64,000 nt of DNA from Ochotona princeps (lineage: Eukaryota). Shown in pieces: positions 29,200 through 64,000 of this stretch (its first letter is position 1; every line of letters begins with the position of its first letter). Where the stretch lies: positions 68,734,485 through 68,798,484 of the forward strand of contig NC_080843.1 in NCBI RefSeq assembly GCF_030435755.1, read 5' to 3'. A program made the position numbers and the translations under genes. The notes under the pieces are model-generated. The model was given only the letters and a program-made list of their open reading frames with translations, was not told the DNA's origin and searched no databases.

Positions 29200-29398
29200 T
29201 CAGCCTTGACTTTGGCTAAGAGCTCTATGGAGAGGAGAGGCTGGGTCACCTGGCTCAATTCCCAGGAGCTGCTTGGTGGCCGAGTCCCAGTCTTTGCCCA
29301 GTTCAAGCCGCTGGCAGATGGACGAATATTGCCCTTCCATTCTTTTCACCCATTCATTTGCTTTCTTTATTTTCTCAGTGTATTGCAAAGGAATTTTC
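29200..29398 (-). CDS. PARP4: PARP4 terminal coding exon, 1 nt + 65 codons + stop (TGA at 29202-29200)
   Basis: Acceptor catttttttttttttcaactag|G. Translation KIPLQYTEKIKKANEWVKRMEGQYSSICQRLELGKDWDSATKQLLGIEPGDPASPLHRALSQSQG*; recalled human C-terminus ..AIKQASEWVRRTEGQYPSICPRLELGNDWDSATKQLLGLQPISTVSPLHRVLHYSQG*. Confidence 0.8.
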
Positions 29399-31448
29399 CT
29401 AGTTGAAAAAAAAAAAATGTCCATCAATTTCATAGGATGACTCTATGTGAAATGTTATGTGCTACCAAATCTACTACATTTTATTAGGCAACATAATTTT
29501 GTCAAAAATTGACACACACACACACACACGGGTGACCCATTGTAGGCTCCTGACTGCTGGGTTTGACCGTGGCTTAGCTTCAGCCTCTCTACCATTTGAG
29601 TAGTAAACCAGTGGGTGCAAGATCTCTTCCTCCTTGAAAAAAGGTAGGACCTGGCTGCTCCACTCGGAGGCCAACTCCCTGCTCAGACGTTTGGGAAATC
29701 AGCAGAAGATAAACCGGGTGTTTGGGCTCATGGCCCCCCACATAGGAGGCCCAGATGAAGCTCCCGGCTCCTGACGTTGGCCTAGCCCAGCTATGGCCAT
29801 TGTGGCCATTTGCGGAGTAAATCAGCAAATGGGAGAGTGCCTCTCTCTGTAATTTTGATTTCTGACTTTCAAATAAATTCAATGCATAAACATACATCTT
29901 TGAAGAAAAACCGGCAAAACATCATCCATTACAAGGAACCTATCTACTAGCCTTGCCCCTTCCGTCATAATCTCTCCCTCTATCAACAGGTAATGTTTTT
30001 CTGTTAGTTTTCTCCTTACCAGGTCTTTAAAAGAACATTAGCAAATTACATACAAACAAGTGGGTATAAGTGTTTTGAAGAATCGTGTGTGGGTGTGTGG
30101 GTGTGGCTGAAGGGGAAATTCATCTTGCCATGGGGTCAGAGTCTGCAGGGAAAAGAGAATGCGCCCCCATAGAGCCCTTAAAAAAGGCTCTCAAATAGTC
30201 CATAGCCTCCCTGGTGACCTTGGGCTCCCTGGCTTGTCCTCCTGAGTTTGAACTGGGCTAACACATCCCTGGGTCTGCAGGGTAACCCAATGTGTGGCGT
30301 ATGTACGTGGGCACTCCAAGATCGCCAGTGGTCAAACAAGGGTTCAGTTTGATCCTGGCGCCCGCAGGCGACTATGAGGTTGCAGTTGTCGCAAGAGAGC
30401 GGACCCATTTTACTTCGTAGTTTGCTAGTCTGCTTGATAACTGCCAAATACTCAGACCTACGGAATGTGGGTTGCCCCCGGCCCCGTTCATATTGAGGAT
30501 CTCTCCAAGGCGTGTAGGATTAACACACTGTTATGCAGAGGTGCTAACCAGGAGCCGGGAGACTGGGGCTACAGTGCCAGACACGGGGAAACTCTCGGAA
30601 CCCGTTTCCTTCGTGGCCTATGGCAAGAAAACTGGGTCAGTCCTGCCTGCAGCAGGAGACTGGGTAAGCTGCTCCCCGTCAGCCAAATTCCCTTTACAAG
30701 GCTTATCGACAAAATGCTGACAGGTGAGGTGCTTCTTGGTATAACAAAAGCTACCTGGAGACGGAAGATGCGTCCAATGTCATCCATGACTTGACAACGA
30801 TTCCCTCTTGTTCCAACTTGGTGCGAAGAAACTGCAGGACCAACAATGTGGCAATCAGGTTCAGGAGGCTTTCTCTTCCACTGACACCTGAAAGGCAACA
30901 AATTCATCAAGGCTTCTGGAAACTCCACATCTCAAATGGTGCCCATGTGCACAATGGCCGTCAAAGAACATGCTATTGGCCAGATCCTAACATCTGTAAC
31001 ACACTTCAAGGTTCCTAATTAGCTTCCTATTCAATTTAAATTACCTCATTGAAGTTACTAGTTAAAGTTAAAAATGAGGATGATGGAGCTGTGCCTATCA
31101 TAGTCTCATGTCTGAGTATCCCTTCTCTGCCAAAATCCCTTCCACTCTGTATTGTATATTGCATCATATAGCAACCAGACACCCTGGATTTGCCATCCTA
31201 GTCTGAGGAGCCTCCACTTTTGTCCTGCGAGAAGCTTTTTGCTTTGTCAGGGTAGGCCTATTTTGGCATCTCCTTTTGTCCTGTGGAGTAGTTCCTGTTC
31301 ATTTATTTCTTTTGTGTGGTGTAGTTCTTGCTCAAGGAGTACTGCCATAGACAGCAGGCCCTTGGGTCTCTGCCGTCCATACAGGACACCTGCACTGAGT
31401 CCCAGATCCAGTTTTCAGCCTAACCTAGCCCTGGCTTGTTATAGTCAC

Positions 31449-33313: not shown

Positions 33314-33413
33314 CTAATGAACCAATGCCTTTTTGCTCAAGGAAGCTGCATAAAGCATTCACATTAACGTTTAACATAAATCCTAGCTCAGGTGTAAGTG
33401 TCCAGAAGCCATC
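33314..33413 (-). CDS. PARP4: PARP4 exon, 33 codons + 1 nt, phase 0 in / 1 out
   Basis: Acceptor tttgtttcttaatttcttag|GAT and consensus donor TTAG|GTAAGT. Translation DGFWTLTPELGFMLNVNVNALCSFLEQKGIGSL(G); recalled human EDGFWKLTPELGLILNLNTNGLHSFLKQKGIQSLG. Confidence 0.75.
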
Positions 33414-34934: not shown

Positions 34935-36092
34935 CTGGGTTTGTAGGCTGAAGAGCTTCCTGCAGGTCACAGCACTCATCCAGCTTTGATGACTGGCCAC
35001 GGCCTGTCCTCCTCCTACTGCCTCCAAGACTTGAATTTTCTTTTTGCTTCCTTTGGTTGCACTGTATGGAGCCACTGACATCTTACTGTCTTTGACAGCT
35101 GTATCCAGCTGCATTAACATTACGTTTGGAAGCTGATCACTTGGATGGAAACTGTCTACTTCGACGGCACCCTCAAAATTCAAGGCAGGACGACGTTTGA
35201 CTTGCAAGGCAGCATGACGTTTGACTGGCAAGGCAGAACCAAATCTGACATTTCTGGCAGGAGCATTGTCAAGGGTATGCCTGAGAGATTGCCTTTCAAA
35301 AAAGCCGCTTGAACTCAAGCTCTCATTAGCCATGGAATCATGGGATTGGGAGGCTATGCTGCGACCAGTGTTAGAGAATCTGGGGGGAGACAGGGAGAGA
35401 CCCTTTTGAAAAGCGACACCAGCAGAGCTAAAGCTCAACCTTGGCTGGGGTGCAGGTAGAGCTGAGACTACAGCCCCAAGCCCGTCCCAAGAGGGCCCTG
35501 CTGTGACGACCTGGGGCAGCTGGCTGGGATGAGAACCCCTCTCTTGGTCGTTGCTAGCAAGGCTTAATTTTGTTGGGCGAGAAGCATGAGAACTAAGGAC
35601 CTCAGGTAGTGATGGGGAAAGAGACATGAAAGCTGGGCAAGGGAGTGGAGCAGGGAAGGCAGGAAAAGCAGAGGAATGAATGCCCCCAGGTAGTGGTGCG
35701 GGAGGAGGGAGGGACGCTGCGCTAAGGAGTGGAGCAGGGAAGGTGGGAGAAGCAGAGGAATGAATGCCCCCAGGTAGTGGTGCGGGAGGAGGGATGGGTG
35801 CTGCACTAGGGGGTGGAGCAGGGAAGGTGAGGGAGATGGCGGCTCCGGCACCGGCAGGCAGAGGAAAGCTGTTGGCAGTCTCTTCTGGTGGTGGCGTGGC
35901 TTCTCCTAAGCAGTTTCTCATCCAGTACCCTTCAGGAGAGAAACTCCTGTCTCTTAAATCCAATGGCATTTCCGCGTCTTCACATTCATCACATGTGAGA
36001 AGCTCTTCCTCTAGCTCATAGGCACCAAGACCAAACAGAGCAGAATGTTCCACCTGCACTGCGTCCCCTGCAGGGGATGCCGAAGGAAGATG
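34935..36092 (-). CDS. PARP4: PARP4 large proline-rich exon, 386 codons, phase 0/0; contains an in-frame 28-codon tandem repeat
   Basis: Acceptor tgttgtttttatctgcag|CAT with an in-frame TGA 12 codons upstream; donor CAG|GTACCT. The open frame overlaps the listed 411-aa ORF. It begins HLPSASPAGDAVQVEHSALFGLGAYELEEELLTCDECED... and ends ...QSWMSAVTCRKLFSLQTQ. The next exon starts in phase 0 with DGFW, which reproduces the human junction ..LLSLQT|EDGFWKLTPELG as I recall it. The ORF-track stop at 34824 lies in the intron. Confidence 0.75.
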
Positions 36093-36540
36093 CTGCAGAT
36101 AAAAACAACATAATGAAGATCAACATTGCTCCCAAGAGAGGGCTCAGTCCCAGAGTCCTCACCTGCATGCGAGGACGGGGGCACTGAGAAAAGCACCCAA
36201 CACGAGGCAGGGAAGGTTGCTCAGCCCTGGAAGGAAGTGCCAGCAACCATCACCTCTAGAGACCGGGCTATGGTCTCCCCTCAGAGCCACGTGCACCCCC
36301 ACTTCACAGGGAGAAAGTGAGGACACAGAGGTGACCCGTCCCAGAGGTGACGCTGAATAGAATCACGGTGTGTAAATGAGCCTGAAAATGAGCTGGTCAT
36401 TCAAAAGAAATGCTGCCAGTCTTTTCTACTGTTTTCTGGAAATATTAAAAAAGGAAAGCAAAGGAAACTTCCAAAGATTGAAAGCAAATGAAGATTTTTG
36501 CACCAGAGAATGAGAATCACGTATTGCCTGAATGTTCTGT

Positions 36541-36800
36541 GGGGCCCGACGGCGTGGCCTAGCGGCTAAAGTCCTCGCCTTGAATGCCCCAGGATCCCAT
36601 ATGGGCGCCGGTTCTAATCCCGGCAGCTCCACTTCCCATCCAGCTCCCTGCTTGTGGCCTGGGAAAGCAGTCGAGGACAGCACTGGCCATTACACTCACT
36701 TGGGGAGTGAATCATCGGACGGAAGATCTTCCTCTCTGTCTCTCCTCCTCTCTATATGTCTGCCTTTCCAAGAAAAAAAAAAAAAATCTTAAAAAAAAAA
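36541..36800 (+). mobile_element. C-repeat SINE, sense, with an internal deletion of about 70 bp
   Basis: Starts ggggcccgacggcgtggcctagcggctaaagtcctcgccttgaatgcc, then ..gcagtcgaggacagcactggccattacactcacttggggagtgaatcatcgg.., with the middle of the consensus missing. Confidence 0.8.
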
Positions 36801-39143
36801 CAAAACAATGTTCCTGGGAAAAGAGCATCCAAGCTAAATCCAGTTTGATACTGACAGCAGGTCTCTGAGATAGTGTGGAAATAATTAGCCTCAAATTTTA
36901 GCTACAAGAGCTGTTTTCAGAAGAGGAGTAGGGACAAGCACTGGGCACAGTGGTTAAAATGCTCCCTGAGAAGCCTGCGTTTGGCCCTTGCTCCGCTTCC
37001 AATCCAGCTTCCTGCCGTGTGAGGGGTCGGAGGGTGGGAGGCAGTTAGGGTCTCTGGCCCTTGGCGAAGTTAGCTTTTAAAATAAAATTGTTCTAAATAA
37101 AAAGTTAACAAATAAATAAAATAAAACCGTGAGGCTCCCTGTTTCTTCCCCTTCCAAGGGCACCTTCTGCCCTCGAAGAGAGAACGAAGGGCCAGAACGG
37201 ACACATCAATGCCCCTTTCTAAGCTTTATCAGCGTGGGAGGAGGAAGCCACCAGTCCTACCCTTCCCATGGCCTCTGGTTCAGCACAAGGTGCCACATTG
37301 CTGCCCAGTATTAATGAGCTTTGCTCTTTTTTTTTTTTTTTTTCCTTTGAGTGACTCTCCGAGACGGTACAAGACATTACCTTCTACCATTTCCTCGGGT
37401 CTTTTTCTCCCTTGGAGCTGAGACCATCCAGGTCTGCTGAAATCTTGGCCACACCTTCAAGTGGGTGGCACAAGCATTGCCCACCCATTTCCTCACTGGT
37501 TAAGAGACCACCAATGGGGGAACCTTTTACCTCTAGATTCATGGCCAATAGGGAGGGGTCAGGGAACCCTTTAAATCCCAAGACCCTTCCTCAGCCCCTG
37601 GTGTCTGTCTCTCCTTCTCTCCTCGCCCATGGCACCCTAGCTCCTGGCTCTCTCTCAGGAGGTGCTTCCCTCTTCCCTCTTCTTTCCATGTACCTGGTCC
37701 CTTCACAAATCCAACTTCTCTGTCTGCAGCCAGTTCTGGCTTCTTATTTCTATATTAAGCCGAGGAAAGAACCCCCCGAGCTTTTCTGGTAACAGGCACC
37801 CTCTTTCATCCTTCGCTAAATAAATCTTGCCCTGCATACTAGAGTTGTATGCATGAAAATTCTTTCATGTAAGGCAAGAAATGAGGTTGCTCTGTGTTTC
37901 ATGTCGAATTCCCCACAACACTGGGAAACCACAGATGGGTCCTGCAGCACTCGGGTCCCTGTCACCCCAAGGGAGTCCTTAGTGAACGGAGCACCAGGCG
38001 TTAGTCTGGTCCAGCCCAACTTTTGCATTCATTTGGGTTGTAATCCACAGGTTGGGAGATGGTCTTTCTGCTCTTCAAACTCAATTTAAAAAATGAATTT
38101 TTCAAAGGAGTAGTTTCAGGGCCGGTGAACTGGTATATCAGATTAAGCTTCTGCCTTGGATCACTGGCATTCAATGTGGGCACCAGTTTGGGTCCTGGCT
38201 GCTGCACTTCCAATCCTGCTCCCTGCTAATGGCCTGGGAAAGCAGCAGAAGATGGATCAAGTGTTTACCAGAGAGGAGTCAGGTGCGATAATAGGCAATT
38301 AAGGCCTCTCTGGTCCATGGTAAAATTAACCATTTAAAGATGTAACACTGTAGGCCCAGCGCGGTAGCCTAGTGGCTAAAGTCCTCACTTTGCATGTAGC
38401 AGGATTCCATATGGATGCCAGTTTTTATCCCAGCCGTTGAGGCTACTTGGGGAGTGAACCAGCAGATGGAAGATCTTTCTCTCTGTCTGTCCTCCTCTCC
38501 CTGGAAATTTGACTTTCTAACAAAAATAAAAATCTTAAAAAAAATGTATTTATTTGAAAGAATTACAGAGAAACCGAGAAATTTTCATCTGATGATTCAT
38601 TCCTCAAATGGCTGTAATGACCAGGGCTGGGCTAGGCAAAGCCAGGAGCCAAGAGTTTTCTGGGTCCTCCAGTGGGTGCAGGGTAAAAAAAATAATGCAA
38701 AACAAAATAAAGTCTTAGTTACATAACATATCCAATGACTGGCACAGCACTGTGGCTAGGGGGATTAAATGCAGCTTGTGACAGCACGCCATATCAGGAG
38801 TGTGTGGTAGACTTCTGGACATTCTATTTCTGATCTGGCTCTCTGCTAAAGTTCTTTGGAAAGCATCAAAAGATGGCCCTAAAGCAAAGGCCTCTGCCAC
38901 CTGCGTGGGAGACCCCTTGGCTCCTGACTTTACTCTGGTCCAGACCTTTTAGAAAGCGAACCAGTGGATGGAGGATTCTTTTTCCTCTCTGTTGTTCTGT
39001 CCCTCAAATAAAATAAATAGTAGGAAGATCTGTGTGAGAAGAGGAGACAACATTAAAATACACATGGAAATTGGGAACTATTTTCATAACTCATAAGGGA
39101 CTCATTTTTCCATGTCAAACTTTTCTAAAACAAATATGGAATG

Positions 39144-41851: not shown

Positions 41852-41974
41852 CTGTGTTGCCCTGGGACTTGGCTGCTTCTCCTGCCAGCTCATGTAAGGC
41901 AGGAAGTCGACATCTTCTTCGGCAATGAGTGTTGAGATGTTTGGTATATTGGGAAAAGCTGCCTCATCACCATC
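41852..41974 (-). CDS. PARP4: PARP4 exon, 41 codons, phase 0/0
   Basis: Acceptor attttgacgcaatgtag|GAT and donor CAG|GTAAGC. Translation DGDEAAFPNIPNISTLIAEEDVDFLPYMSWQEKQPSPRATQ; recalled human DENESPFPDIPKVSELIAKEDVDFLPYMSWQGEPQEAVRNQ. Confidence 0.7.
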
Positions 41975-50515: not shown

Positions 50516-50924
50516 ATAATATTTATGTCTTCAAACTGGATACACACCTAAATGCAAGAAGTATAAAGAAATGATGTTCACTCAAGCAAAGAGAATTTTT
50601 GCTATGTAAAAGGCATCTGTCCTATTAGGTTTCTTTTGATAACATTTTACAATACTAAGAACTAATTTCTGGTTCTCATGTAGTAGCAGAGCAGGTTAAG
50701 GCACTGTCTGAGACAGTGAACACGGAATTTGAGTCCCAGCTGCTCCACTTCCGATCCAGCTCCCTGAAAACAAGCCTGGGAAAGCAGTGGAGGCTGGCCC
50801 AGATGTTTGGGCCCCTGCCCCCATAGGAGAGATCCTGGCTTCAGGTCAGCTCAGCTCCAGCTGTTGGGGCCATCTGGGGAGTGAATAAGCAGATGGAAGA
50901 TCCTTCCGGGTGGTCAGGACTTAC

Positions 50925-51112
50925 CCAATCCCACAGGTGAACAGCCTGGTATGGCGGACACTCCTTTGCACGAGCTGCAGGGTCAGGCTCTCATTCTGGA
51001 GGTGCCCGTCAGATATCAGGAGAATGTTCCGTAACCCTTGAGCAGGGTACAGTAAACTTAAGTACCGTAGGGTTTTCCAGAAGTCTGTGTTCCCCATGGT
51101 AGGTGTGGCTGA
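50925..51112 (-). CDS. PARP4: PARP4 exon (VWA domain), 62 codons + 2 nt, phase 0 in / 2 out
   Basis: Acceptor ttttgttttgtctcttccag|TCA and donor GG|GTAAGT. Translation SATPTMGNTDFWKTLRYLSLLYPAQGLRNILLISDGHLQNESLTLQLVQRSVRHTRLFTCGIG(G) shows the VWA hallmarks (ilLiSDG.., ..CGIG). Confidence 0.8.
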
Positions 51113-52094
51113 CTGGAAGAGACAAAACAAAAGCGTACTCACTCCTGTTTGGGTGAATCCACCATCAACTGTAACCATTTCCTGAAGTGCGTCTTTTAAT
51201 GAGGGCTTAGAGATGTGCCATCATTGCAGTACCTATATCCTTTCTGTTTATTACGTATCTTCATCACTTGCCACTTGCTTGCTTACGGTTGTTACATACA
51301 TGGGAGAAACAGCCCTCAAACCACCCCTGGGCTCAACAGCCTGGACTTGGTGGGTGCCTGGCCGTTCTTAGCCTGCTCCATTGGGAGAGAAAGTAAACAC
51401 AGAGCCAAGTAAATTGTTCCAGGGGCTGGAGCTGGGGCATGGCACGTGACGCTCCTGCTTGTGGCCCCGGCATTCCATGGTGGTGCCAATCAGAGTCCCA
51501 AATACGTGTGATTAGCTTCCTGTTCATGTACTTGGGAGAGCAGTAGAGGATGCCTCAAGTGCCTGCGCCCCTGCACCCAACTAGGAGACCTGGATGGAAT
51601 TCTAACAGGTGAACTATTTCCATCTCTTCCTTTCAAATTATTACTGTTATTATTTTTAGCAAAATGACTGTCTAAAATCATTCATATCAGTTACATACAG
51701 ACTGGTGATTTGTTTCTACTCTTTCATGTTCAATTTTTCTGTAACAGATTCATATACCATTATTAGTGAGATAAAGAACCTGCCCTTAGAGGGAATGGGT
51801 CCTAATTTAACCCATTGGACCACTAACTTTTTTTTTTTTTACTTAAACCCCACCTTTCCCCCAACCCCCAGACCACTAACTCTTGATAGGGGAAGACTCA
51901 GAGAATGGAGAAAACTTTGACACTCACCAAAATGAACTCCGTCAGCACTTTTTGACTTGTGATGCTCTTAGGATATGAAAATAACTCCTTGTAACCTAAG
52001 CAATAACATTACATGAGATGTTCCCATGAAACATTCAATTGATCACCAAGACGCAAGAATGATAACTTTGCCGCTATCATACAGAAGATGTAAG

Positions 52095-63642: not shown

Positions 63643-64000
63643 CTGCCGAAGAGAAAACCCACATGCTGGATGAGTCTACACGCATGACACAAACATGATT
63701 ATACATATTTGTTTTAAATGCCTTCAGTTTTTATTACGTCCCTTAACTTCCTGGGCCTGGCTTCAACAGCCACACATGACACAGTGGCAGGGCTGCCTCC
63801 ATGCCCTGTGACCCAGTGCGCTGGCTGCATATTCAGAGCTCCGTGCACACCTGATGGAGACCATGGGAACTCCCACCAACACTGCACACAGCCCCATGTG
63901 TGCGGTGAGCCTCGTTCCCCTAAGTGTCAGGTGGCCTGGCAGCTGTTAAGATGTCCCCCATTTACCCTGGGGTCATGTCTCACCACCAGGGGTGGGGACT

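Follow-up and report, generated by a model that had tools for sequence, protein, structure and literature searches.

In vertebrates, the largest exon of PARP4 encodes about 360 amino acids (aa) of disordered protein, is under positive selection, and is highly variable in both sequence and length (Daugherty, Young, Kerns and Malik 2014, PMC4038475). This exon, exon 30 in the human gene, is almost entirely disordered, and the strong signal of positive selection in the gene comes from it alone; this selection was reported on point substitutions in primates and bats (PMC4038475). The DNA analyzed here, referred to as the window, is a stretch of 64,000 nucleotides (nt) from Ochotona princeps (NCBI RefSeq assembly GCF_030435755.1, contig NC_080843.1, positions 68,734,485 to 68,798,484, forward strand). 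On its minus strand, the large PARP4 exon contains a tandem array of three 84-nt units. It is quite probable that the array represents the in-frame tandem triplication of 28 codons, specific to this lineage, in a disordered, hypervariable linker exon.

The large exon of the window resembles exon 30 of Daugherty et al. in many respects: it belongs to the same gene, is the largest exon, lies between the ITIH-like part and MVP-ID, is predicted to be disordered, is poorly conserved compared with its flanks, and varies in length. That study stated the length variability, and the window adds a concrete source for it, in-frame tandem duplication with a unit that differs per lineage. The term "tandem repeat" occurs 0 times in the text of that study (PMC4038475), and a literature search revealed no paper linking PARP4 with "tandem repeat" for the large exon.

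Outside PARP4, the variable number tandem repeats (VNTRs) in the central exons of mucins (PMC6269512) are a comparable system. Like the array in the window, they are in-frame repeats of tens of base pairs (bp) in a low-complexity, unstructured Pro/Ser-rich region. They differ in having many near-identical copies and documented polymorphism, whereas the window has three diverged copies read from one allele. As in coding minisatellites generally, the units of the window are arranged head to tail, fall within about 10-100 bp, and have a length that is a multiple of three and preserves the frame.

Structure of the Tandem Array

The array and its units are as follows.

35580..35831, minus strand: tandem array of three head-to-tail 84-nt (28-codon) units, in frame, with 0 indels
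35748..35831, minus strand: unit U1, LTFPAPPPSAAPIPPPAPLPGGIHSSAS, in codon register
35664..35747, minus strand: unit U2, PTFPAPLLSAASLPPPAPLPGGIHSSAF, in codon register
35580..35663, minus strand: unit U3, the degenerate oldest copy, PAFPAPLPCPAFMSLSPSLPEVLSSHAS, in codon register
35832..35864, minus strand: possible partial fourth copy, PLPAGAGAAIS compared with PLPGGIHSSAS, weak

The periodicity was indicated by several measures. The self-comparison of the exon in 84-nt windows, which is the dot-plot proposed for the 84-bp periodicity in the original prediction, gave the best offset at 84 (77/84 identical), the next at 168 (61/84), and a third peak at 24 (51/84). The highest of 200 shuffles reached 46/84, and the peaks at 84 and 168 thus exceed all of them. 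The motif AGKGGAGCAGGGAAGG is located at 35644, 35728, and 35812, with one mismatch in the third copy; by chance 0.03 matches are expected, and three were reached in 0 of 100 shuffles. The spacing of exactly 84 bp agrees with the original prediction, but each of the three positions is one base below the value given there. Tandem Repeats Finder reported the repeat at 35640-35829 with a period of 84, 2.3 copies, 90% matches, 0% indels, and a score of 317. Although the original prediction also counted about 2.3 copies, three full units can be aligned in register (35579-35662, 35663-35746, and 35747-35830, the last two being 73% and 71% identical to the first-listed). The array consists of three full units, one of which is decayed.

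The number of differing nt, out of 84, is 8 for U1 against U2 and 23-24 for each of these against U3, with a background of 53-67 between unrelated blocks of this length in the large PARP4 exon. The coding strand of the array is 75% pyrimidine (C+T). Upstream in the reading direction, the protein diagonal at offset 28 runs on into 35832..35864. This partial fourth copy was rejected, because only 15 of 33 nt match at the DNA level.

The placement of the repeat on the coding (minus) strand of PARP4, in frame, within a large Pro/Ser/Ala-rich exon, was claimed from the beginning and is supported: the 84 nt correspond to 28 codons, the frame is open through the array, and both peptides quoted at that time occur letter for letter in the translation of the minus strand.

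A second, independent in-frame tandem repeat is present in the same exon at 35181..35252 on the minus strand. Its three units of 24 nt (8 codons) are translated as RFGSALPV/KRHAALQV/KRRPALNF, a motif that is basic and rich in Lys/Arg, and the other two copies show 88% and 71% identity to the first. It is responsible for its own self-comparison peak at offset 24.

Comparison with Orthologous Exons

The large exon was compared with seven orthologues, represented by C-terminal PARP4 fragments that include it: the orang-utan (P0001), another primate (P0127, sequence L005), a bird (P0008), a Mus-like transcript (P0004, L002, near the Mus pahari record P0131), another murid (P0016, L003), a further mammal (P0132, L004), and the closest available relative (P0044/P0122, L001). 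In the exons coding for MVP-ID, the identity to the window is 83% for the closest relative and 73-75% for the other orthologues. The large exon itself shows only 20-31% protein identity, with lengths of 356-445 aa (386 in the window), compared with 66-97% for the flanking exons. Even with the closest relative, blastn similarity in the exon is limited to the last ~90 nt, and the flanking exons are 83-96% identical.

Internal repeats were scanned on the diagonals of the protein sequences. The window scores 177 at offset 28, compared with a shuffle maximum of 56. Other offsets were significant in the murids (22 and 12), P0122 (36), and P0132 (25), and in the two primates and the bird nothing exceeded the shuffles. 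The 28-residue period is absent from all seven orthologues. At the DNA level, the homologous exon contains the following arrays.

L001 (closest relative), 1741-1938 and 2262-2323: 108 bp in 1.8 copies, and 21 bp in 2.7 copies
L002 (Mus-like), 1580-1771: about 30-36 bp in 5-6 copies
L003 (another murid), 1720-1944: 36 bp in 5.3 copies, with super-units of 78 and 114 bp in 1.9 copies
L004 (mammal), 571-700: about 37 bp in 3.4 copies
L005 (primate): no tandem array

Thus, five of the six DNA sequences examined, including the window, contain in-frame tandem arrays whose unit differs by lineage. The orthologues do not share these two or three copies, and within this sample the 84-bp array is thus specific to its lineage, in agreement with the species-specific reading that the original prediction considered possible.

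The murid repeats (LFGGTHLPPPP-type, in L002, L003, and Mus pahari P0131) are similar to those of the window in that they lie in the same exon, in a Pro-rich neighbourhood, in frame, with a PLPGG(I/T)H-like kernel. They differ in the unit (10-12 codons instead of 28), the number of copies (5-6 instead of three), and the presence of indels (7-13% against none), and the homology of the kernel is suggestive only.

Sequences closer to the window were searched for in several ways. The exhaustive HMMER search of the exon against 1.84 billion representatives returned one marginal match, P0121 (E = 4.5e-4, 29% identity, 58 residues), which was taken as low-complexity noise. The word-indexed protein search with the whole exon returned no match at E <= 0.001 among 8000 candidates, the maximum considered, which Pro-rich words had probably filled. 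When the non-repetitive half of the exon was combined with MVP-ID as a protein query, no same-species protein was recovered, and the best match covering the exon was 52% identical. The 37-nt core of the unit had 0 matches among metagenome contigs, and the exact look-up of the 411-aa genomic open reading frame (ORF) returned no record.

Two orthologous records lack an exon. The transcript of the closest relative, from Logan run ERR11779097, skips around its position 747 the vWA-encoding exon that corresponds to 50924-51139 of the window, and its reading frame is therefore split into two called genes. Either an isoform with the exon skipped or an error of assembly could account for this. In the PARP4 model of Camelus dromedarius (P0053), ...PYMSWQEEPRKASTSQGSISYQ is joined directly to DGFWKLTPELG and the large exon is absent, which could be due to an annotation gap or an exon-skipped isoform. 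In human and rhesus, Daugherty et al. (PMC4038475) detected no expressed sequence tags that skip exon 30.

Gene Identity and the Host Exon

The upstream exons, from 63654 to 45763, encode Pfam domains VIT (E = 1.6e-35), VWA_3 (E = 4.8e-14), and VWA (E = 6.6e-13). Among 5.8 billion proteins, those most similar to them carry the name PARP4, such as the one from Pongo with 83% identity. The C-terminal exons match human PARP4 over residues 1564-1724 in the PDB entries 11jf (chain 11jf_P), 9bw6, and 9bw7, with a phmmer e-value of 1.8e-63, and the name of the matched entry is "Protein mono-ADP-ribosyltransferase PARP4". On these database matches, the gene is assigned to PARP4 (vault poly/mono-ADP-ribosyltransferase). 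The assignment does not depend on a human PARP4 sequence that was used with tblastn as a lead only. That query placed colinear minus-strand exons for residues 635-1212 at 63654 to 41882 and for residues ~1583-1719 at 33413 to 29218, with 66-97% identity. The first matched exon starts at about human residue 635, and the exons for BRCT, WGR/HD, and the ART catalytic domain are upstream of window position 64000, outside the window.

The C-terminal part of the gene is composed of the following exons.

41852..41974, minus strand: preceding PARP4 exon (...EDVDFLPYMSWQEKQPSPRATQ), end of the conserved ITIH-like part, AG/GT, 83% nt identity to the closest relative
34935..36092, minus strand: large PARP4 exon, 1158 nt, 386 codons, phase 0 at both ends, acceptor tttttatctgcag/CAT, donor CAG/gtacct
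33314..33413, minus strand: next PARP4 exon (DGFWTLTPELG...), the first to be entirely MVP-ID, AG/GT
30755..30887, minus strand: MVP-ID exon (VSGRESLLNLIATLLVLQFLRTKLEQEG...), AG/GT
29200..29398, minus strand: final coding exon segment of PARP4, ending with the TGA stop (29200-29202), from the frame and the PDB alignment

In this model of five exons, every junction is AG/GT and a single continuous frame leads to the TGA stop. The array is within a minus-strand open frame of 411 codons. The exon at 34935-36092 is single, is the largest, and directly precedes MVP-ID; its last ~20 codons align to human residues 1564-1583. Both of its ends are homologous to those of the orthologues, all of which have one long exon here. 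It is the counterpart of human exon 30, the largest exon of the gene.

The Pfam label PF26156, which is precomputed for PARP4 orthologues, was not returned by the local Pfam copy for either the composite C-terminal protein or MVP-ID alone, and the membership in MVP-ID therefore rests on the PDB match.

Position of the Array in the Disordered Linker

MVP-ID corresponds to residues 1570-1724 of human PARP4, and the segment preceding it is intrinsically disordered (Suskiewicz et al. 2023, PMC10450202). In the structure of the human vault resolved by cryo-electron microscopy, long disordered regions bridge the folded domains of PARP4 inside the vault lumen (PMC12280208). In the window, the last ~20 codons of the large exon form the beginning of MVP-ID, and the array ends ~235 codons upstream of that point. 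Thus, the array is outside the vault-docking domain, and the suggestion that it lies within the part of PARP4 interacting with MVP and the vault could not be maintained. The array belongs to the disordered linker that connects the ITIH-like (VIT-vWA) region with MVP-ID.

The composition and the predicted structure of the exon fit such a linker. Ser, Pro, Ala, and Leu together constitute about 50% of its residues, and no Pfam family was found in it. It has no match among the PDB sequences even though full-length human PARP4 is included there, indicating that the exon is strongly diverged. In the AlphaFold2 model, based on an alignment of 21 sequences, the whole exon has a predicted local distance difference test (pLDDT) score <50 without secondary structure, and MVP-ID of the same chain is helical with pLDDT 73-95.

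One substitution was observed in MVP-ID itself. At ~29360-29398, in the last coding exon, the window reads SRKIPLQYTEKIKK where human and most orthologues have SR(N)IPWAFExIKK, and the conserved Trp is replaced by Leu.

Divergence and Age of the Units

The Kimura two-parameter distance is 0.10 between U1 and U2, and 0.35-0.37 between either of them and U3. By the Nei-Gojobori method, the synonymous (dS) and nonsynonymous (dN) distances between U1 and U2 are 0.083 and 0.11 (2 synonymous and 6 nonsynonymous differences), and those to U3 are 0.16-0.18 and 0.43-0.45. If neutral sites in mammals are assumed to change at about 2e-9 per site and year, the dS values would place the duplications at roughly 20 and 40 million years before present, with a very wide error. 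The divergence of 9.5% and ~28% between units indicates an old array rather than a recent expansion, and a VNTR-like character of it is not supported.

The differences are not evenly distributed. Codons 1-13 and 28 account for all 8 differences between U1 and U2, 7 of which are in the first half of the unit. The remainder is an identical block of 45 nt encoding (L/I)PPPAPLPGGIHSSA, and a difference-free run of this kind has P = 0.012 by simulation. Constraint on the motif, gene conversion, or chance could each account for the identical block.

Origin of the Array

The array can be explained by two successive duplications in a coding tract rich in pyrimidines, either by slippage during replication or by unequal exchange. 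The older duplication would have split U3 from the ancestor of U1 and U2, and the later one would have generated U1 and U2. Because an insertion of a multiple of three in a disordered tether leaves folding undisturbed, both duplications could have been retained or tolerated: the frame was kept and no fold was disturbed. The exon is known for diversifying rather than purifying selection. The linker between the enzyme body and the vault-wall anchor would thereby have been lengthened by about 56 residues, and the Pro-rich motif PPPAPLPGGIHSSA (PLPGGIH-type) is now present in two perfect copies and one decayed copy. The repeat would not be a folded repeat domain, and it is not a part of the vault-docking surface. 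It may act as variation in the length of the linker and in the number of motif copies in a putative pathogen-facing or cargo-facing tether.

Several observations weigh against a lineage-specific triplication or limit what can be concluded from it. In the MAFFT alignment, the two 108-bp units of the closest relative are the partners of U1 and U2, and both arrays may instead go back to one ancestral duplication, with later concerted evolution and remodelling of the units. DNA alignments of the unit of the window with the repeat regions of L001, L002, and L003 are not significant against shuffles, and unit-for-unit homology of the arrays is therefore not claimed. The protein, metagenome, and exact-ORF searches yielded no PARP4 sequence of the species itself or of any near relative, and the estimate of the time of origin is an indirect one. 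The low pLDDT is weak evidence for disorder where the alignment is poor, as it is in the exon region, and the expression and splicing of the exon in O. princeps are predictions from the genomic sequence. The dN/dS ratios, 1.33 between U1 and U2 and 2.4-2.7 to U3, compare units within the exon rather than species, and being derived from 8 and 24 differences they are not significantly different from 1. At or above 1, they would fit the published relaxed or diversifying regime of the exon.

It is unlikely, though conceivable, that the array is a polymorphic coding minisatellite, or a true VNTR, in which ongoing unequal exchange gives individuals different numbers of the 84-bp unit, the window being one allele. 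The head-to-tail structure is free of indels, the 45-nt identical block of U1 and U2 (P = 0.012) could support misalignment or gene conversion, and the differing arrays in the homologous exon of other species indicate a region prone to slippage. However, there are just three units, 9.5% and ~28% diverged, and arrays of few diverged copies are usually stable. The window provides one allele only, and the same-species searches came back empty.

Slightly less credit is given to selected multivalency, in which extra copies of PPPxPLPGG(I/T)H were fixed for avidity to a host protein of the SH3/WW type or to a pathogen protein, with an independent amplification in murids. The half of the unit with PPPAPLPGGIHSSA is identical between U1 and U2, the other half holding 7 of the 8 differences. 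The murid orthologues repeat LFGGTHLPPPP / PLPGGIHLPP 5-6 times, compared with a single PPLPGG or FPGG in primates, and the exon is reportedly positively selected as a putative pathogen interface (PMC4038475). Nevertheless, the protein scores of the PLPGG kernel are within or near the range of composition-matched shuffles and the DNA alignments are not significant, so that homology of the kernel is only suggestive, which weakens the case for lineage-specific triplication as well. Pro-rich low-complexity sequences converge readily, and the identical block could equally be due to gene conversion or chance. The motif is lost in U3, and no partner of it is known.

A wider version of this idea is similarly doubtful. 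The tether might have repeatedly and independently amplified PPLPGG(I/T)H, with 28-codon units in the lagomorph-like lineage of the window, 10-12-codon units in murids, and others elsewhere, so that motif copy number and tether length would be targets of the host-pathogen arms race inferred for the exon, with an array that is possibly polymorphic within the species.

That the extra units were mis-assembled, or that the repeat is non-coding (intronic or in a pseudogene), is very improbable: tandem repeats are a classic site of assembly errors and no transcript from O. princeps stands behind the gene model, but the 8 and 23-24 differences let reads place the units unambiguously, the 386-codon frame is open with canonical AG/GT and phase 0/0 in a model that reaches the conserved C-terminus and the stop, and all orthologues have one long exon here.

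Interspersed Repeats in the Window

A tRNA-like short interspersed element (SINE) of ~270 bp with an A-rich tail is present at 36535-36810 and at ~40 sites across 1-64000 on both strands, as indicated by 76 high-scoring segment pairs with blastn. It presumably resembles the lagomorph C repeat.

Implications for PARP4 Evolution

Taken alone, the array is not surprising; as a lineage-specific in-frame triplication, it is an example of the already published length variation of the exon, here through tandem duplication. Part of this published variability can be traced to in-frame tandem duplications that differ among lineages. Selection tests that align the large PARP4 exon should mask or model such arrays. 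If the motif copy number matters, the natural variants would be useful as reagents. The largest exon of PARP4 is among the clearest cases of a disordered region under recurrent positive selection.

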